Origin: Chloroflexota bacterium
Lineage (GTDB): Bacteria; Chloroflexota; Limnocylindria; Limnocylindrales; CSP1-4
Reading direction: 5' to 3'
Length of the DNA: 64,000 bases
NCBI GenBank assembly: GCA_003156975.1
Contig: PMIE01000043.1
Span: forward strand, 26,618 to 90,617
Shown: piece after piece, positions 44,523 to 53,445 of the stretch
How the letters are laid out: each line of letters opens with the position of its first letter
Numbering within the stretch: position 1 is the stretch's first letter
The notes under the pieces: model-generated
Database searches by the model: none
Seen by the model: only the letters and a program-made list of their open reading frames with translations
Told to the model about the DNA's origin: nothing
Position numbers and translations under genes: made by a program

Positions 44523-46394
44523 TCAGCGGCGAACCCCGTGTCGGACTGCGCCGGCGGCGACCCGCCCTGGCTTGCCCGAGACCCACTCGAGCAGCTCCGC
44601 GCGAGCTCTCGTATTCATCACCTGGTGAGGCTCGAGCCAGGCGCGGCGAGCCATTGCGGTGCCCCACCGGAGACTGTCCAGCTCCTCCGTTCGGTGCGCG
44701 TCGGAATCGATCGTGAAGACGCAGCCGAACTCCGCCGCCCGGCGCGCCCGAACGTCCGAGAGGTCGAGACGCTCATCCGACCCGTTCAACTCCAGGGCAG
44801 TGCCGGTTCGGGCAGCCTCCGAGAAGACGGCGTCCCAGTCCAGGTCCAGGTCGTCGCGGGAACCGATGTACCTGCCGGCCGGATGGGCAATGATGTCGAC
44901 GTTCGGGTTTCGAATGGCGGCCAGCGTCCGGGCGGTCAACTGGTCGCGCGGCTGCTTCCGTGAGACGTGGACCGAGGCGACGACCAGGTCGTAGCGGGCA
45001 AGCAGATCATCGGGGTAGTCGAGCGTGGCATCGGCCCGGACCTCCAGCTCGCAGCCGTGCAGCAGCCGGAAGCCCCCGGCCGGTGTTTCGGGCGGAGCCG
45101 TGCCCGCGGCCTCCTCCGCCTCGAACCGGCGATTGAGCGCCGCCACGATCTCCCGTTGCGTCTCAACCCGCTCGAGCGAGAGGCCGTGGGCGATTGCAAG
45201 ACTGACTGTGTGGTCGGTCAGGACAAGGTACGAGTAGCCACGCCGGCGAGCCGCCTCCGCCATCTGCTCGATCGTATGGACTCCGTCGGACCAATCGGAG
45301 TGGATGTGGCAATCGCCGCGAAGGTCGGCCGGCGTCACCAGGCGCGGCAACGTCCCGGCGAGACCGGCCTCCACCTCGCCGCGATCCTCGCGCAGTTCCG
45401 GCTCGATGAACGGCAGCCCGAGGAAGCCGTACGCCTCCGTCTCGGTCGCGAAAGTCCGCAATTCGGCCGGCTCGCCCGCCTCCCCCAGGGCCGGCTCGCC
45501 GTCATCGCGGAGTCGCAGATAGCCCTTCTCGGACAGACTCCAACCGATGTCGCGGGCCATGCCTCGAAGGCGGACGTTGTGTTCCTTGGAGCCTGTGAAG
45601 TGGATCAGATACGTGCCTGCCTCGCCGGGCGGCATGATCATCAGGTCAACCTGCGGGCCGCGAAGCAAGCGGACCGCGGCCTTGTGTGGGCCCTTCGCGA
45701 TCACGGACTCGACCGAGCCGAGCGATGTGAAACGTTCCACCAGCTCGAGCGGCCGATCGGTTTCGGCAAGCAGATCCAGATCGCCGATCGTCTCTCGCCG
45801 ACGGCGGAACGAGCCGGCCGGGTGGATCGATCGAAGGCCCGGCGCGCCCGACAGTTCGGCCAGAAGCGTCTCCAGGATCGCCTCGGCCTGGCCCAGTCGC
45901 ATCCGCTCTTGCCGGCTCTCGAGCGCAGCTATCCCCGCCAGAACACCTTGCTCGGTCTTCTCGGACATGCCTTTGAGGCCGCGCAACCCGCCGGACTCAG
46001 CCGCCCGCCGGAGATCGTCGAGCGTCTCGATGCCCAGTTCGTCGTGGAGTTGCCTTACCGTCCGCGGCCCGACGCCGGGAAGACTCAGCAGCGCCACCAG
46101 GCTGGGCGGCACCTCTCGGCGCAGGCGGTCGTAGAAGTCCATGTGACCGGTCCGGGCCAGCTCTTCGATCTTCTTCGCGATCGCATCCCCAACGCCGGGG
46201 ATCTTCGGCGGCTTGCCGTCCAGGTAGGCGCGCGAAACCTCGGCGGGCGAGTGGGCTATCGCGTCCGCGGCCTTGTGGTACGCGACCGTCTTGAAGACCA
46301 GCTCGCCCTTGACTTCGAGCATGTCGCCGATCTCGTGGAAGATGCGGGCCAACTCGGCGTTTGAAGGGATCGAGGTCGTTTCGGGCGCATCCAT
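44523..46394 (-). CDS. polX: DNA polymerase X family protein with C-terminal PHP phosphoesterase domain
   Basis: The N-terminal HhH motifs (IPGVGDAIAKKI, LPGVGPRTVRQL) and the nucleotidyltransferase motif GSFRRRRETIGDLDLL are present. The PHP domain (CHIHSDWSDG...HPAGRY) follows. Confidence 0.85.
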   Translation of the reverse strand: MDAPETTSIPSNAELARIFHEIGDMLEVKGELVFKTVAYHKAADAIAHSPAEVSRAYLDGKPPKIPGVGDAIAKKIEELARTGHMDFYDRLRREVPPSLVALLSLPGVGPRTVRQLHDELGIETLDDLRRAAESGGLRGLKGMSEKTEQGVLAGIAALESRQERMRLGQAEAILETLLAELSGAPGLRSIHPAGSFRRRRETIGDLDLLAETDRPLELVERFTSLGSVESVIAKGPHKAAVRLLRGPQVDLMIMPPGEAGTYLIHFTGSKEHNVRLRGMARDIGWSLSEKGYLRLRDDGEPALGEAGEPAELRTFATETEAYGFLGLPFIEPELREDRGEVEAGLAGTLPRLVTPADLRGDCHIHSDWSDGVHTIEQMAEAARRRGYSYLVLTDHTVSLAIAHGLSLERVETQREIVAALNRRFEAEEAAGTAPPETPAGGFRLLHGCELEVRADATLDYPDDLLARYDLVVASVHVSRKQPRDQLTARTLAAIRNPNVDIIAHPAGRYIGSRDDLDLDWDAVFSEAARTGTALELNGSDERLDLSDVRARRAAEFGCVFTIDSDAHRTEELDSLRWGTAMARRAWLEPHQVMNTRARAELLEWVSGKPGRVAAGAVRHGVRR

Positions 46395-46512
46395 CGAGAG
46401 AATGGTAGCCGGGGGGATGCCGGCACAGGCAAGTGGCACGCGAGGGGCCGCAGGCTGATCCTGCCAGGTCGCCGTCCGTCTGACGGCGACTACTCTGACG
46501 GCGATCAGGCGA

Positions 46513-48039
46513 TTACTTGGGCGCCTCGGATTGCCACGCCTCGACTACGCGGTCGCGGCCGGTTCTCTTGGCCGCGTAGAGCGCCCTGTCGGCGCGTTCG
46601 ACGATTTCGTCGATCGGCTCGCCCGCGAACTGCCCGGATGCCACGCCGACCGAGACGGTGACCCGTTCCTCCACGCCGGCCTCGGTGAGGTCCATCTCGC
46701 GCACGTTCTGGCGGATCCGCTCGCCGATCTCCAGAGCGATGCCATGCGACGGGTTGCGCAGCAGGACGGTGAACTCCTCACCGCCGAAGCGGACGGGCAC
46801 GTCCTCCTCCCGAACGGACAACTGGATGGCGTTGGCGATCGATCGCAGAACGATGTCGCCGGTCTGATGCCCATACCGGTCGTTGAGCAACTTGAAATGG
46901 TCGACGTCGATCGTCACGATGGCGACGCGATCGCTGGATCTGCGGCGGCTCGCGATCAGCCGGCAATACTCGTCGAAGTAGCGGCGGTTGGGGAGCTGTG
47001 TCAGCTGATCGGTTCGGGCTTCAGACTCGGCGGCCTGGTGCGAGTAGACGCGAGCCAGCGCCGCAGAGGCCTCGAAGGCAGCGCTGTTCAGCAGCCTCAC
47101 TGCGGCCTCGGGCCAGGCCTCGCTGGTCCGGCGCGACAGGACGATTGCGCCGGCGATGACTCGGCCCGATTGGAGCGGCGCGGCCAGGGTATTGCGCAGA
47201 CCGTAGACGTCCCGAAGCCGGTAGGCGATCCGGTCCGCTACCTCGCTGGCTTTCGCCTCCGCCTGGAAGGCGTTCCGGGAGCCCGTCCGTATGTTGCTCC
47301 GGAACGTGGCCGTCGCCACGTCCGCGGCCCCTGCCGGATCGCCCGAACGGTCGTGAGGATCGCGCCATACCGGAGTCGGGTCGCCGTCGACGAACCGCAG
47401 GGGCGTTCGGTGGGGCGCCTGTCCGGACAGCTCGCGCAGTCGGGCCTCTACCGGTTCCAGCTGGCGCAGCGGCATGACCGTATTCGACGCCGGCGTGCCG
47501 GAGAGCATCGACACGAAGGTCACGTCCAGGACCGTGCTTCCGGGCCTCAGTCGCACCACGGCGACGTGGTCCGCTTCGGTGGCTGCGCCAAGCTCGTGGA
47601 CGATCGCCTCGACCACCGCGTCGGGCGAGACCGATCGCGACAGGGCCCGCAATATGCGGCTGAAGCTCTCCGCCTCCGAGTTGCGCCGCTCCACTTCGAT
47701 GCCGGAGGCTCGGGCGTTCATGACCGCCGACGAGACGAGGCCGGTGATCGCGATCGACAGGGCCAGCTCCATTACGCCGCCGTGATGGACGAAGTACGCA
47801 ACGAGCCCCTGGCCCAGGAGAAGGACAACCGACATCGCGAGCAAAGCCCATGCCAGGAGAACGCGCGGAGCTCGCGCTCCTCCGTGCTCGTCGGAAGGCT
47901 CGTCGGCGCGAAGCCGGTTCGAAAGGGCCGACTGCCCAGATCGGGTACGGCGTCCAAGCCACCTGAGGGCCAGATCTGCCGGACCGCCGCGAGCCAGGAA
48001 GGCCTGGACCCGCAAGGCGACCGCGCGGAGGACCCACAT
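46513..48039 (-). CDS. diguanylate cyclase (TM/GAF-like sensor plus GGDEF domain with an active GGEEF site)
   Basis: RFGGEEF, LTQLPNRRYFDE and DVDHFKLLNDRYGHQTGD are present. The start is placed at MWVLRAV (48039). Upstream in-frame sequence is ambiguous. Confidence 0.8.
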   Translation of the reverse strand: MWVLRAVALRVQAFLARGGPADLALRWLGRRTRSGQSALSNRLRADEPSDEHGGARAPRVLLAWALLAMSVVLLLGQGLVAYFVHHGGVMELALSIAITGLVSSAVMNARASGIEVERRNSEAESFSRILRALSRSVSPDAVVEAIVHELGAATEADHVAVVRLRPGSTVLDVTFVSMLSGTPASNTVMPLRQLEPVEARLRELSGQAPHRTPLRFVDGDPTPVWRDPHDRSGDPAGAADVATATFRSNIRTGSRNAFQAEAKASEVADRIAYRLRDVYGLRNTLAAPLQSGRVIAGAIVLSRRTSEAWPEAAVRLLNSAAFEASAALARVYSHQAAESEARTDQLTQLPNRRYFDEYCRLIASRRRSSDRVAIVTIDVDHFKLLNDRYGHQTGDIVLRSIANAIQLSVREEDVPVRFGGEEFTVLLRNPSHGIALEIGERIRQNVREMDLTEAGVEERVTVSVGVASGQFAGEPIDEIVERADRALYAAKRTGRDRVVEAWQSEAPK

Positions 48040-48496
48040 GACCCTGAGCAGCGCAGCACCGACCAGGACGCGCAGGGAGAGTCCCCCTGGGTCCCTCCCA
48101 TCAGGATTCTGGGCACGGATCAGGCTCACCAGGGAAGCATGCGCCAAATGGGTCGGATTTCTCGTCGTTCCGGCGGGTACATGGAGGCTAGGGAGACCGG
48201 TACTTCCGTTCAATCTGTCCTTCTCGCGCGTTGACCCAACGCACGAATGCGGACTACACTCCCGCTTGGTCGAGGCAATGCCCGCAGGGGTTGCTGCGCG
48301 CCTCTCGGCCAGCCCCAATCCGTTTCGGAGGATATCTCCCTCAGTGGAGACCGGACCCCGTACCAACGGCGTCGCACGCGCTGACAGCGCGCCCCACGCC
48401 GAAATCCCTCATCTGGTCCGCCCGGCCCTCTAGCGGTGTGCGCCCTCCGGCGCAGGCCACCGACTGGCGGGGATGGACCCGCCGTCGAGGTGGCAT

Positions 48497-49771
48497 ATGC
48501 TCTATCTCAGCCAGGCGATTGGCCGGCCCGTGCGCGATCAGCACGGCGAGTCGATCGGAACGGTTGCCGACCTGATCGTCGCCATCGGCGATCGGTATCC
48601 GCCTGTGACCGGGATCGTCGTCAAGACGAACGGCCGCGAGATATTCCTTCACTGGAACTCGGTGACATCGCTGGATGCAGGCGGCGCCACGCTCGGCACC
48701 TCCGCCATCGATATCAGCAAGTTCCAGCAAAGGCCCAACGAGATCCGTCTGAAGCAGGACTTGATGGACCGCCAGATCGTCGACATCGACGGTCGGAAGG
48801 TGGTCCGAGTCAACGACCTGCGCCTGGATGAGGTCGAGGGTTCGCTCCACCTCGTCGCAGTCGACGTGGGGGCCTCCGGGCTGCTTCGGCGGCTCGGGAT
48901 CGAAGGGCCGTGGCGAGTCATCGCCCGGGGCGTGGGTCGCGGCGTTCCGGAGCGATATATCGATTGGGAGGACGTGGATCCGGTCGAGCGGACGATCGCC
49001 AGCGTCAAGCTGCGCGTCCCGCACAAGGGTCTGGCGGAACTCCACCCGGCCGACCTTGCGACGATCATGGATCAGCTCAGCCGCAACGACCGCGTGGGCG
49101 TCATCGCCGCCCTGGACGACGAGGCGGCGGCCGATGCCATCGGCGAGATGGAGCCCGAGACTCAGGTCGACATCCTTGAAGACCTCGAGCCCGGCCGTGC
49201 CGCCGACATCCTCGAGGAGATGGACCCGGACGAGGCCGCGGATCTTGTGGCCGATCTGTCCGAGGAGAGCCGCGAGGAAATCCTGGGCCTCATGGAAAAG
49301 GAAGAGGCCGACGAGGTGCAGGAACTGATGACGTACGCCGAGGACACGGCGGGCGGCATCATGACGACCGAGTTCGTGGCCGTGCCGGCCACGCTCACCG
49401 CCGCCCAAACGATCGATCGCCTGCGCGAACTCGAGCCCGACGCCGAGACCATCTACTACGTGTACGTTACCGATTCAGACGGCCGCCTCTGTGGCGTTCT
49501 GTCCTTGCGAGACCTGATCGTGGCCAAGCCGAACACGACCATTGCAACTTGTATGTACCCAGATCCGGTCGCCGTCCGCACGGATGCCAGCCAGGAAGAG
49601 GTCACCGAAGTGGTGGCCCGGTACAACCTGCTGGCAGTCCCCGTGGTCGACGCGGAGGGCCGCCTCGAGGGCATCGTCACCGTCGACGACGCGATTGACA
49701 CTCTCCTGCCGCAACCGTCCAAGCGCCGCATCCCGCGCCTCTTCAGCAGGTCCGGTGGCGGCGACCGATGA
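48497..49771 (+). CDS. soluble MgtE N-terminal domain plus tandem CBS protein with an N-terminal PRC-barrel-like domain (no transporter TM domain)
   Basis: An acidic MgtE-N helical bundle (DDEAAADAIGEMEPETQVDILEDLEPGRAADILEEMDPDEAADLVADL) is followed by a CBS pair (MTTEFVAVPATLT...; LAVPVVDAEGRLEGIVTVDD). The ORF ends without any TM segment. Its stop overlaps the NRAMP start as ATGA. Confidence 0.75.
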   Translation: MLYLSQAIGRPVRDQHGESIGTVADLIVAIGDRYPPVTGIVVKTNGREIFLHWNSVTSLDAGGATLGTSAIDISKFQQRPNEIRLKQDLMDRQIVDIDGRKVVRVNDLRLDEVEGSLHLVAVDVGASGLLRRLGIEGPWRVIARGVGRGVPERYIDWEDVDPVERTIASVKLRVPHKGLAELHPADLATIMDQLSRNDRVGVIAALDDEAAADAIGEMEPETQVDILEDLEPGRAADILEEMDPDEAADLVADLSEESREEILGLMEKEEADEVQELMTYAEDTAGGIMTTEFVAVPATLTAAQTIDRLRELEPDAETIYYVYVTDSDGRLCGVLSLRDLIVAKPNTTIATCMYPDPVAVRTDASQEEVTEVVARYNLLAVPVVDAEGRLEGIVTVDDAIDTLLPQPSKRRIPRLFSRSGGGDR

Positions 49772-51051
49772 GGAAGCCGGCTATCGCCCTCAGCCCTCGA
49801 GCGGCAAACCGGGTCAGGCTGGCGGCGATCCTGGGCGTCCTGGGCCCGGGCCTGGTGAGCGGCTTCGCCGACAACGACGCCGGTGGAATCACGACCTACT
49901 CCGTTGCCGGCGTCAAGTACGGGTATGAGCTGCTGTGGGTCCTGCTGGCCACACAGATAGTCCTGTTCTTCACCCAGGAAGTGGGTGCTCGACTTGGGCT
50001 GGCAACCGGCCAGGGACTGACGGGGCTGGTCCGCGAGCGGTTCGGCGTCCGCTGGGTCACGTTCCTGACAGTGACGATGCTCATTGCGAATACCGGCTCG
50101 ATCGTCGCGGAGTTCGCCGGCACCGCGGCGGCTCTCAGCCTGTTCAACGTGGCACCCGCCGTCAGCGCCATCCTGGCCGCATCCGTCGTCATTCTGCTCC
50201 TCACTCGCGGCAGCTTCGGCAAGGTCCAGTACCTGTTCGTGGCCACGGGCATCGGCATCTCACTGGCGTATTTCGTTTCGGCGCTCATGGCCAAACCGGA
50301 CTGGGGCCTGGCCGCTTCCTCACTGGTCATCCCGCGCGGATCGCTCAACGGCGCCTACTGGTTGGCGGTCGTCGCAACCGTCGGCACCACGATCACACCC
50401 TGGGGACAGGCCTTCATCCAATCGTATTGCGCCGACAAACGGCTCGGACCCGAAGACCTCGTGGGCGAGCGGCTGGACGTCGGCCTGGGGGCATTGCTGA
50501 CCAACCTGATCGCGGCCTTCATCGTCGTTGCCTGCGCATCCGCCCTGGCGGCTCACGGAGTGAAGATCGACACCAACTCCCCCACCGCGATCGCGGATAT
50601 CGCCAAGGCGCTGGCACCGCTGGCCGGCGGAGGGGCGACGGTCCTGTTCGCCGTTGGGTTGCTGGCGGCATCCTTCCTTGGACTCGGAGTTGTGCCGCTG
50701 ACAAGTGCGTATGCGGCCTGCGAAGCCTTCGGATGGGAGACCGGCGTGAACTGGCAATGGCGTGAGGCGCCGGCGTTCTACGGCCTTCTGGTCTTCTTCA
50801 TTGTCTTTGCCGGACTGTTCGTCCTGATCCCGGGCCTGCCTCTCGTGCAAGTCATGTTCATGGCCCAGGTGATCAATGCCTTGCTGCTCCCATTCGTGCT
50901 GGTTTTCGTGATGCTGCTTGCGTCGGACAAGAAGCTGATGGGGCCGCTGGCCAGTGGCCGATTCCTCCAGATAGTCGGTTGGACGGGAACGGCGCTGCTG
51001 GTGCTGCTGTCCGTGACGCTGGCCTGGTCGTCGTTCTTCGTCAAGGCTTGA
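49768..51051 (+). CDS. mntH: NRAMP family divalent metal (Mn2+/Fe2+) transporter
   Basis: GPGLVSGFADNDAGGITTYSVAGVKYGY is the NRAMP DPGN-type consensus region. Eleven TM helices are predicted. Length is 427 aa. Confidence 0.85.
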   Translation: MRKPAIALSPRAANRVRLAAILGVLGPGLVSGFADNDAGGITTYSVAGVKYGYELLWVLLATQIVLFFTQEVGARLGLATGQGLTGLVRERFGVRWVTFLTVTMLIANTGSIVAEFAGTAAALSLFNVAPAVSAILAASVVILLLTRGSFGKVQYLFVATGIGISLAYFVSALMAKPDWGLAASSLVIPRGSLNGAYWLAVVATVGTTITPWGQAFIQSYCADKRLGPEDLVGERLDVGLGALLTNLIAAFIVVACASALAAHGVKIDTNSPTAIADIAKALAPLAGGGATVLFAVGLLAASFLGLGVVPLTSAYAACEAFGWETGVNWQWREAPAFYGLLVFFIVFAGLFVLIPGLPLVQVMFMAQVINALLLPFVLVFVMLLASDKKLMGPLASGRFLQIVGWTGTALLVLLSVTLAWSSFFVKA

Positions 51052-51075
51052 GGCGACACCGGGGTCTGCTAGAGG

Positions 51076-52185
51076 CTAGGTACGAACGCCCAGTTCCGCC
51101 CATACCTCCGCCATTCGAGCCGCGGCGGTCCGGATATCGTGCCCGGCAACCGAAGCCGGTCCGGCCGCGCCGAGCCGTGCCCGCAGGCCGGCGTCTTGCA
51201 GCCGACTCAGAGCGCCGGCCAGGGCGCCGGGATCGTCGGGCGGAATGAGCAGACCGTTCTCTCCGTCGCGAACCACCTCGCGCAGGCCCCCGACATCCGA
51301 TGCGATCACCGGCGTTCCACATGCGAGACCCTCCACGGCCGCCAACCCGAGGGGCTCTCGGCGCGACGGGACCACGACAACATCTGCCGTCCGCATCCAG
51401 GCCGCGATCTCGGCGGGGGGTGCGGGCGGCAGCAACCGAACTGACGGAAGGAGCGTGGAGATGGACTCGGCCAGAGGGCCGTCCCCAACCATCACTCCGG
51501 ACCACCCGGCCGGCCCGGCGAGATCGAGTGCGGCGGCAAAGACATCGGCGCCCTTGCGCTCGGACAAGGTTCCAACGTACAAGGCGAACAAACCCTCCGG
51601 TGCACCGAGGCGGATTCGCTCGGCGGAGCGATCGGCGGCTGGAGTGGCGGCTGGAGTGGCGCCGCCGGCCGGCCGGAAGACCGTCATGTCCACGCCCGGC
51701 GAGATGACCCGTGCCGTGGCGCCGAGTCTCTCCACGAAACCGGCGGTATCCCGGGAGTTGGTAACCACGGCCCTGGATCCCCGGACGACCCAGCCGGCAA
51801 GCGAGCCGTGGAATCGGTTGCGCCGGGCATAGTCGGCCACGTCGCCGCCGTGGGCGTAAGCGACCATTGGGATGCGCCGGAGTCTCGCCGCGAGCAGGCC
51901 GATCACCCCGGCGAAGTAGACGGGGTGCGACTCCACGCCGTCGAAGCGGCCCCTCGCCGTCAGGGCCCGGCGGGCGATCCCCAGGTGGCGGAACAGCGAG
52001 TTGCTCCGATAGCTGGTCGGTCCGGCGACGACGACTTCGACGCCCCGCTCACGCAGCGCCGCCACGCGGCGAGCCACAAAGGGGCTCATGTTGGGGCGAT
52101 CCGGCGTCGGGTAGATGTTCGTGACGAGGAGCAGCCGCGTGGGCCGCTGGGGGGCGCCTGGTTTCGGTGAAGGGCGCTCTGGCAT
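51076..52185 (-). CDS. glycosyltransferase family 4
   Basis: Start is the ATG at 52185 (MPERPSP...). A GT-B fold with an E-x7-E-like region is visible (VVPSRREPLGLAAVEGLACGTPVIASDVGG). The 5' 1.2 kb of ORF 51076..53379 is antisense to wecB and is rejected. Confidence 0.75.
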   Translation of the reverse strand: MPERPSPKPGAPQRPTRLLLVTNIYPTPDRPNMSPFVARRVAALRERGVEVVVAGPTSYRSNSLFRHLGIARRALTARGRFDGVESHPVYFAGVIGLLAARLRRIPMVAYAHGGDVADYARRNRFHGSLAGWVVRGSRAVVTNSRDTAGFVERLGATARVISPGVDMTVFRPAGGATPAATPAADRSAERIRLGAPEGLFALYVGTLSERKGADVFAAALDLAGPAGWSGVMVGDGPLAESISTLLPSVRLLPPAPPAEIAAWMRTADVVVVPSRREPLGLAAVEGLACGTPVIASDVGGLREVVRDGENGLLIPPDDPGALAGALSRLQDAGLRARLGAAGPASVAGHDIRTAAARMAEVWAELGVRT

Positions 52186-52323
52186 GTCCGGAATGATGGC
52201 AGGGCCGCGTCGATCCTGCGCCCGGTGCGCGTCGGCCGCGCACGACTCGGCCGGCGCCAGCGCCGCCCTGCCGGCCCCGACGCCGAACCTGTGCGGACCA
52301 ACGCGGGCCGCTACCATTGGCCC

Positions 52324-53445
52324 ATGCCCCGAACGGTTCTGTGCGTCGTCGGCGCGCGACCCAACTTCATGAAAATGGCGCCGCTGCTCGCCGCGATGCG
52401 TCGACGCCCGGATCGCCTCGCGCCGCTGCTGGTCCACACCGGCCAGCACTATGACGCGGCCATGTCGGATGTCTTCTTCGACCAGCTCGGCATGCCGAAG
52501 CCGGACATACATCTCGGCATAGGGCCCGGAAGCCACGCCACACAGACCGCCGGCATCATGGTCGCGATGGAGCGCGTGGTCGCCGACACGGCGCCGCAGC
52601 TGCTCCTGGTCGTGGGCGACGTCAACTCGACGATCGCGGCGGCGGTCGTAGCAGCGAAGGCGGGGATCCCGCTGGCCCACGTCGAGGCCGGCCTGCGAAG
52701 CTTCGACCGGCGGATGCCCGAGGAAGTCAACCGTATCGTCACCGATGCCCTGGCCTCCTATCTCTTCGTGACCGAAGAGTCGGGGGTTGTGAATCTGCAG
52801 CACGAGGGCGTGGACGCTTCGCGGATCTTCCTGGTAGGGAACGTGATGATAGACACGCTCGATTCGCTGCTGCCGACCATACGAGAGCGTCACAAGGCCG
52901 CCGAGCTGGGCCTTTCGGCCGGCGAATACGGCGTCGTGACTCTGCACCGACCCTCGAACGTCGACGACGCGGAGATGCTGGCCAGGTGGGTCGGAGCACT
53001 CGAGGTGATGGCCCGCCGGCTGCCGCTCGTCTTCCCGGCCCACCCCCGGACTGCCGCCCGCCTCGCCGCCGAGGGACTGGCGGATCGACTGTCCGCCGCG
53101 GGAGTACAGATCGTTGAGCCGCAGCCGTACGTGGAGTTCATCAGCCTCGTCGCCGATGCCCGCGTCGTTCTCACAGACTCCGGCGGAATCCAGGAAGAGA
53201 CCACAGTCCTCGGCACGCCCTGCTTGACTCTGCGAGAAAGCACCGAGCGGCCGGCAACCGTGACTCTCGGAACCAACCGACTCGTTGGAACGGACCCTTC
53301 GGATGCAGTGCAAGCGCTGGAGGAGGCGCTGGCAACAGCCCCACTCAAGCCGCCCCCGCCGCCATTCTGGGACGGGCACGCCGCAGAGCGGATCGTCGAG
53401 ATCCTCGATGGACGCGAATGGACTGCTCTGGGAACGCCGGCTTAG
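52324..53445 (+). CDS. wecB: UDP-N-acetylglucosamine 2-epimerase (non-hydrolysing)
   Basis: VLCVVGARPNFMKMAPL...HTGQHYD...GDVNSTIAAA...HVEAGLRSFD...TDSGGIQEE is the classic WecB/MnaA motif set. Confidence 0.85.
   Translation: MPRTVLCVVGARPNFMKMAPLLAAMRRRPDRLAPLLVHTGQHYDAAMSDVFFDQLGMPKPDIHLGIGPGSHATQTAGIMVAMERVVADTAPQLLLVVGDVNSTIAAAVVAAKAGIPLAHVEAGLRSFDRRMPEEVNRIVTDALASYLFVTEESGVVNLQHEGVDASRIFLVGNVMIDTLDSLLPTIRERHKAAELGLSAGEYGVVTLHRPSNVDDAEMLARWVGALEVMARRLPLVFPAHPRTAARLAAEGLADRLSAAGVQIVEPQPYVEFISLVADARVVLTDSGGIQEETTVLGTPCLTLRESTERPATVTLGTNRLVGTDPSDAVQALEEALATAPLKPPPPPFWDGHAAERIVEILDGREWTALGTPA

Follow-up and report, generated by a model that had tools for sequence, protein, structure and literature searches.

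A soluble PRC-barrel MgtE-like protein encoded in translational coupling with an NRMT-type transporter: a candidate sensor for Mg2+ uptake

Introduction

Among the importers of Mg2+ in bacteria, NRMTs make up the fourth class. The present work concerns a two-gene locus in a 64,000-nucleotide stretch from an uncultured Limnocylindrales-like member of the Chloroflexota (contig PMIE01000043.1, assembly GCA_003156975.1, positions 26,618 to 90,617 of the forward strand; the whole stretch is called the window hereafter, with position 1 as its first letter). In this window, an open reading frame (ORF) for a soluble homolog of the cytoplasmic part of the Mg2+ channel MgtE, ORF A, runs into a second one for an NRMT-type protein, ORF B. 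The reading that we put forward, with slightly better than even confidence, is that the locus is a translationally coupled two-gene operon for Mg2+ uptake in which ORF A would be a cytoplasmic sensor that inhibits the NRMT.

The closest described systems are the nrmT operons of Shin et al. 2014 (PLoS Genet, PMC4072509), the transporter EleNRMT (7QIA/7QIC/7QJI/7QJJ; Ramanadane et al. 2022, PMC8806188) and the channel TtMgtE (2YVY/2ZY9/5X9G). According to Shin et al., most nrmT genes adjoin a gene for a homolog of the MgtE cytoplasmic domain, which in C. acetobutylicum is split in two, and many nrmT/MgtE-like operons are under M-box control; for the MgtE-like protein the authors proposed “cytoplasmic feedback regulation” or “metal chaperone activity” (PMC4072509). 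EleNRMT carries Mg2+ and Mn2+ and not Ca2+, shows no H+ coupling, and has a threonine, T224, that is needed for Mg2+ transport and much less for Mn2+ transport; in the site of the NRMT clade, DxxG and TxxA/T replace the canonical DxxN and AxxM (PMC8806188). EleNRMT was studied alone and, going by term searches of PMC8806188, a partner is not mentioned there.

The gene pair has thus been known since 2014 and is widespread, and a regulatory role, resting for our locus on sequence comparison, has been proposed for it. The original prediction for this DNA, made from its letters by a model, had considered the arrangement uncharacterised, but both the pairing and a co-expression test are already found in Shin et al. 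(PMC4072509). As in the operons of that study (e.g. Ca_c0685, Acp2976/Acp2977), the MgtE-cytoplasmic homolog lies immediately upstream of the Nramp-related gene, here in the same orientation, and the A. capsulatum nrmT operon has no M-box, as is the case at the present locus. The locus differs from these operons by its origin and because ORF A, with 424 aa, has an extra tandem PRC-barrel module and a conserved basic tail. In the literature searched, with PMC4072509 and PMC8806188 covered as excerpts, we found no mention of the tandem PRC module, the basic tail or the retained Mg4/Mg6/Mg7 ligands of the partner; the same literature yielded no paper joining “PRC-barrel” and “MgtE” and no later functional study of the MgtE-like partner. 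The present work adds how broadly the pair is conserved, that the partner has a PRC-MgtE ancestry, and which features of the sensor were kept and which were replaced.

Results

ORF A (424 aa) and ORF B (427 aa, Nramp fold) are both on the plus strand and meet at the junction cgATGAgg, where the ATG of ORF B at 49768 overlaps the TGA of ORF A at 49769-49771. A longer frame for ORF A opens at 48473; the ATG at 48497 is backed as its start by a GAGG 6 nt upstream, as well as by more than 100 homologs (88-95% identity), each of 424 aa and of matching architecture. Both genes are single-copy within the window. Their features are listed below, all on the plus strand.

48487..48490, plus: Shine-Dalgarno-like GAGG, read from the sequence, 6 nt 5' of the ATG at 48497; putative role
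48497..49771 including the stop, plus: ORF A, soluble MgtE-like sensor protein (PRC, PRC-like, MgtE_N, CBS pair, basic tail)
48500..48682, plus: PRC-barrel domain 1, residues 2-62; Pfam PF05239, E 2e-9; beta strands in the AlphaFold2 (AF2) model, predicted local distance difference test (pLDDT) ~90
48758..48892, plus: second PRC-like beta domain, residues ~88-132; sub-cutoff Pfam PRC match, 18 bits, E 0.003
49040..49345, plus: MgtE_N helical domain, residues 182-283; Pfam PF03448, E 3e-27; contains D213, D245 and D249
49367..49705, plus: tandem CBS pair, residues ~291-403; PF00571 in two stretches, E 3e-20; contains D398 and D401
49706..49768, plus: basic C-terminal tail LLPQPSKRRIPRLFSRSGGGDR, from the alignment of 77 soluble versus 17 fused relatives
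49768..49771, plus: ATGA stop/start overlap (translational coupling), read from the sequence
49768..51051, plus: ORF B, NRMT-type protein of 427 aa; site residues D37, G40, E115, T207, T210, W212 and Q367

ORF B matches Pfam Nramp PF01566 with 268.6 bits over profile positions 1-355 of 357, and its score against the NCBIfam model for MntH, NF001923, is 120.5 bits for a cutoff of 430. Among all PDB sequences its best match is 7QIA (EleNRMT), with 297.7 bits over residues 17-418, versus ~100 bits, and at most 102, for the MntH structures. The site residues compare with those of EleNRMT as follows.

ORF B D37-A-G-G40, EleNRMT D55-A-G-G58: DxxG motif of helix 1, Gly for the canonical Asn
ORF B T207-T-I-T210, EleNRMT T224-T-I-A227: TxxA/T motif of helix 6, without the metal-binding Met
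ORF B W212, EleNRMT W229: in place of a proton-pathway His, helix 6b
ORF B I217, EleNRMT N234: in place of a proton-pathway His, helix 6b
ORF B E115, EleNRMT E133: conserved Glu of helix 3
ORF B Q367, EleNRMT Q379: conserved Gln of helix 10

The two proteins therefore share the DxxG motif, the Thr at the T224 position, the Trp, the helix-3 Glu and the helix-10 Gln, and differ by TxxA in EleNRMT versus TxxT in ORF B, both of which are allowed NRMT variants. With the canonical MntH/NRAMP Mn2+/Fe2+:H+ symporters (DraNramp, ScaDMT), ORF B shares PF01566 and the LeuT-type fold, but not the DPGN/AxxMPH site or the proton-pathway histidines. Taken from its sequence, ORF B is assigned to the NRMT clade of SLC11/NRAMP, and H+-independent Mg2+ transport is predicted. 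A canonical MntH is excluded by the replaced DPGN/AxxMPH motifs and by the NF001923 score below cutoff. Thus, the NRMT signature, the 298 bits to 7QIA and an MntH score of 120.5 for a cutoff of 430 do not allow the label “NRAMP MntH-type Mn/Fe transporter” of the original prediction to be maintained.

The conservation of the pair was surveyed in one genome per GTDB species starting from 12 closer sequences, which gave 593 confirmed relatives, of which the best 80 loci were analysed; three of these 80 were cut by a contig end, leaving 77 informative loci. The surveyed lineages were Chloroflexota, Armatimonadota, Nitrospirota, Deltaproteobacteria, Firmicutes, Actinomycetota, Eremiobacterota-type, Saccharimonadales, Caldiserica and Methylomirabilota, together with archaeal Methanobacteria. 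The soluble form is encoded in all 80 loci. An ORF B homolog adjoins it in 69 of the 77 informative ones, as the synteny to be expected from the original prediction, and lies directly downstream on the same strand in 67. Junctions could be measured in 62 loci: the two genes overlap by 4 bp in 16 and lie 0-30 nt apart in 30 (together 46/62). The NRMT signature was present in every full-length neighbour (60/60), with Gly at the G58 position and Thr at the T224 position in all 60; the Met position is occupied by T/A/S and never by Met, and the His position by W/Y. In an Eggerthella sp. locus (L070), the sensor gene is directly upstream of a gene for a protein 75% identical to EleNRMT. The flanking GGDEF and PolX genes are syntenic in the closest relatives only (L001-L005); since the other flanks are not conserved while the adjacency of A and B persists, the linkage of A and B is specific. 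The converse share, that of NRMT genes having a sensor partner, rests on the “most group members” of Shin et al. (PMC4072509).

An Rfam scan of 32 diverse loci found an M-box riboswitch directly upstream of the soluble gene, on the same strand, in 3/32 (133-151 bits), and no yybP-ykoY Mn2+ riboswitch in any of the 32. The three M-box aptamers, in Thermoleophilia, Actinomycetota and Firmicutes metagenome-assembled genomes (MAGs), are the following.

L046:3749-3918: M-box aptamer
L064:3749-3918: M-box aptamer
L061:3713-3883: M-box aptamer

Some loci of the survey depart from the simple pair or extend its range. Orphan sensor genes, with no NRMT within ~4 kb, were seen at L024, L027, L038, L042, L051, L056, L068 and L076; the basic tail motif is kept in some of them (L027, L038), suggesting that the partner gene lies at a distance or that the target is a different one. 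A tandem second NRMT paralog without a second sensor (sensor-NRMT-NRMT) occurs at L007:2886-4088, L010:5741-6904 and L064:6557-7381. Three Methanobacteriaceae MAGs (L025, L029, L032) have the same sensor-NRMT pair, with 41-44% and 38-40% identity, and these archaeal pairs imply an ancient origin or an inter-domain transfer of both genes as a unit. At L019 and L020 the matches to the sensor (and NRMT) are split or read through, suggesting frameshifts or assembly errors.

To compare ORF A with the sensor of MgtE, TtMgtE residues were mapped onto the alignment of 77 soluble and 17 fused relatives, with the Mg2+ site assignments taken from PMC5882242 and the ATP contacts from PMC5529423. Of the 77 soluble members, 72-76 keep the ligands of Mg4, Mg6 and Mg7 and the equivalent of D250. 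In ORF A, D91/D247 of Mg4 correspond to D245/D398, D95 of Mg6 to D249, E59 of Mg7 to D213, and D250 to D401. The kept sites are those that bridge the N and CBS domains of MgtE upon Mg2+ binding (PMC5882242). At the C-terminal end, the acidic plug helix (EEAxEDLSxL...) is swapped for a conserved basic tail with the approximate consensus LPTAWKKRLPRLF, and E255, which is invariant in the fused channels (17/17), is lost in the soluble forms (Q406 in ORF A). The ATP-contact equivalents of Y170, R187 and D188 are retained, and the N203 equivalent is variable. ORF A therefore resembles TtMgtE in its N domain, CBS pair, Mg4/Mg6/Mg7 sites and D250, Y170, R187 and D188 equivalents, and differs from it in having neither the plug helix nor the pore of five transmembrane (TM) segments, in having an extra N-terminal tandem PRC module, in the lost or charge-reversed equivalents of E255/E258/D259, and in Asn and Leu at the positions of D226 and F227.

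The domain composition of ORF A was supported by several comparisons. The Pfam pore domain PF01769 is absent; ORF A scores 200 bits against TIGR00400 (cutoff 232.75), in an alignment confined to profile positions 25-251 of 450, and the cytosolic domain of TtMgtE (2YVY) is matched with 183 bits over residues 173-406. The match for the second PRC-like domain came from scanning residues 69-181 alone; this domain bears the most conserved N-terminal motif of the family, DkQIVDxxGxKVVRVNDL, and AF2 places beta strands at residues 93-123 in it. The AF2 model has a mean pLDDT of 74.6, with ~90 in the first PRC barrel and <35 in the tail (residues 400-424), which is predicted from the model to be disordered. 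Foldseek returned 2YVY (E 1.5e-20) and then other MgtE structures as the top matches; having a predicted template modelling score (pTM) of 0.40 and a root-mean-square deviation to MgtE of ~8 Å, the model was used for domain boundaries and tail disorder alone. Pfam and the sequence thus bear out the original prediction as to the PRC N-terminus, MgtE_N, the CBS pair, the missing pore and the ATGA overlap with an NRAMP-fold gene.

The search with ORF A against 1.84 billion representative sequences gave 14,492 hits, the best 150 of which comprise a soluble class of ~400-460 aa and a longer class, ~24 proteins of 585-656 aa whose C-terminal part has five hydrophobic segments. Several of these long relatives are true MgtE channels: they contain PF01769 as well as the N-terminal PRC module seen in ORF A. 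Soluble and fused forms alike have DkQIVDxxGxKVVRVNDL and GLLRRLG, the motifs best conserved at the N-terminus, so that the PRC module is ancestral to a PRC-MgtE clade and no adaptation to NRMT. The ORF A lineage accordingly descends from the PRC-barrel MgtE clade or has a common ancestor with it. As a separate observation, PRC, MgtE_N and CBS domains are fused to a C-terminal multi-TM region of 5-8 hydrophobic segments in P0186, P0246, P0197, P0206, P0233 and P0245, the last of 749 aa and several others of ~600 aa. No Pfam PF01769 or Nramp match was obtained for these six TM regions, and BLAST of them against MgtE pores and NRMT gave at most one marginal match of 39 aa (P0233, E 0.003); these regions could be an MgtE pore that has diverged very far, or the same sensor could here be joined to another transporter type.

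The pair is flanked by a divergent GGDEF-type gene (46513..48366, minus strand) and by a convergent ORF (51076..53379, minus strand), and bracketed in this way it looks like a self-contained bicistron. The one site seen in the promoter scan, weak and sigma-70-like, falls within the divergent gene (48231-48260), and the scan for an intrinsic terminator at the locus gave none, both results being uninformative for GC-rich Chloroflexota-like DNA. The surrounding genes, with the first two labels read off the translations, are these.

44523-46439, minus: PolX-like gene, beyond the GGDEF gene
46513-48366, minus: GGDEF-type gene divergent from the operon; its product has a long N-terminal region
51076-53379, minus: 767-aa ORF
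52225-53445, plus: 406-aa ORF resembling UDP-GlcNAc 2-epimerase

Given its overlap with the epimerase-like ORF, the 767-aa ORF on the minus strand is probably an over-extended call, in GC-rich DNA, of a shorter glycosyltransferase gene.

Discussion

Our results lead us to propose that ORF A senses Mg2+ in the cytoplasm as a detachable module. When internal Mg2+ is high, and possibly also with an adenine nucleotide, it would take a closed N-CBS conformation, and the closed protein would inhibit the NRMT from the cytoplasmic side, perhaps by docking on it through the basic tail. An uncoupled importer would thereby gain a negative feedback such as is intrinsic to MgtE and CorA. Indeed, according to the one biochemical study, transport by EleNRMT is not H+-coupled, so that an external brake would make sense. 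The Mg2+ ligands kept in ORF A, the M-boxes in relatives and the NRMT identity of ORF B are together best read as a Mg2+ sensor with a Mg2+ importer. In a more specific form of this proposal, which we hold tentatively and at somewhat less than even chances, the gate of the PRC-bearing MgtE lineage now acts in trans on the NRMT, docked by its tail and closing when the N-CBS sites fill; this would differ from TtMgtE in that the module acts on an unrelated LeuT-fold carrier. The strong co-conservation and the genuinely pore-less sensor make a two-component regulated uptake unit a reasonable model. This part of the “regulated Mn/Mg uptake unit” of the original prediction can therefore be retained, but not its Mn/Fe basis, for which an NRMT and Mg2+ are favoured.

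A number of observations weigh against an inhibitory Mg2+ sensor. Neither the literature searched nor the present analysis holds direct evidence of a physical interaction between ORF A and the NRMT, and no natural sensor-NRMT fusion was found among the top 150 representatives. Some residues of the MgtE sensor are changed or lost: the Mg5 ligand D226 is replaced by Asn in 62/77 soluble members, and in TtMgtE the D226N/D250A mutant has lost its function; of the Mg2/Mg3 ligands, neither E258 nor D259 is present, ORF A having K409 and R410 in their place; and the adenine-stacking F227 is Leu, the fused PRC clade included, which, together with the variable N203 equivalent, makes ATP binding uncertain. 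At the locus itself, the Rfam scan of 46000-52000 at E <=1 gave no M-box or other riboswitch, the sole match being a spurious miRNA (E 0.36). Sensor genes without an adjacent transporter make up 8/77 loci. Finally, in the single co-expression test published, that of A. capsulatum Acp2976 with Acp2977, the added partner did not improve the rescue of a Mg2+ transport mutant, and Acp2977 rescued a Mn2+ transport mutant and the Mg2+ mutant weakly, being mainly a Mn2+ importer (PMC4072509). The null result of this co-expression at low Mg2+ would be expected of an inhibitor that is active at high Mg2+.

Other explanations of the locus have to be weighed against an inhibitory sensor. The soluble protein might instead be a positive factor: a subunit required for activation, an aid to assembly, or a metallochaperone taking the imported ion. 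The tight coupling and 1:1 gene order suit any stoichiometric partner, the many conserved acidic sites in ORF A could bind an ion, and the chaperone is among the alternatives listed by Shin et al. (PMC4072509). We nevertheless regard a positive factor as unlikely, since Ca_c0685, Ca_c3329 and EleNRMT transport without a partner, in vivo and in proteoliposomes, the co-expression brought no improvement (PMC4072509), and the homologous module closes the MgtE channel when Mg2+-bound (PMC5882242). Equally improbable, in our view, is a physiological uptake system for Mn2+ (or mixed divalent ions) with a Mn2+-responsive sensor, which would come near to the original prediction. The Thr equivalent to T207, which Mg2+ transport by EleNRMT requires, is invariant in the 60 neighbours, all of which are devoid of the canonical Mn-selecting Met; relatives have M-boxes and, in the 32 loci, never the Mn riboswitch; and the sensor retains the Mg2+ ligands of MgtE. 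These points stand against the Mn2+ transport of EleNRMT (PMC8806188), the rescue profile of Acp2977, which is paired with an MgtE-like protein, the window without an M-box and the agreement with what Shin et al. suggested for A. capsulatum (PMC4072509).

It also has to be considered that what the soluble protein does may have no bearing on the transporter, e.g. binding of another partner by the PRC barrel, and that it is merely co-transcribed. The orphan loci (8/77) would fit with this, as would a PRC module that is common with the fused MgtE channels and so not NRMT-specific. On the other hand, an adjacency of ~90% across phyla and domains of life, with the other flanking genes unconserved, and its specificity for genes with the NRMT signature (60/60) speak against such an independence, to which we give a lower probability still than to an activator or to a Mn2+ system. 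As for a truncated pseudogene of a full-length mgtE, the nearest longer relatives of ORF A are indeed full-length PRC-MgtE channels (42-47% identity). Against this, a tblastn search of the whole window, all frames included, with pore domains from 22 fused relatives gave only noise: the one hit with E below 0.3 is where the CBS pair ends, in frame. Downstream of ORF A, the space is occupied by the NRMT ORF. Moreover, length and architecture are kept across hundreds of ORF A homologs, and the soluble forms have their own conserved C-terminal motif. The ratios of nonsynonymous to synonymous substitution rates (dN/dS) versus close relatives are 0.06-0.25 for ORF A (0.06-0.09 being the values that weigh most against a pseudogene) and 0.11-0.28 for ORF B, showing purifying selection on both. 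The tblastn result, the length of the homologs and dN/dS rule out a pseudogene with an out-of-frame pore, an outcome that the original prediction had named as damaging to it, and the chance that we leave to it is negligible.

To conclude, the MgtE-like partner has been the obvious candidate regulator of NRMT since 2014, and its conservation extends to archaea and to a locus with a close ortholog of EleNRMT, the member with solved structures. The features that were kept and those that were replaced, i.e. the sites bridging the N and CBS domains and the plug helix that gave way to a basic tail, point to specific mutational and binding experiments. If ORF A is indeed an inhibitory Mg2+ sensor, a channel's sensor module would now serve elsewhere as a separate subunit, and the NRMT structures and kinetics published so far would be those of transporters without their physiological regulator.

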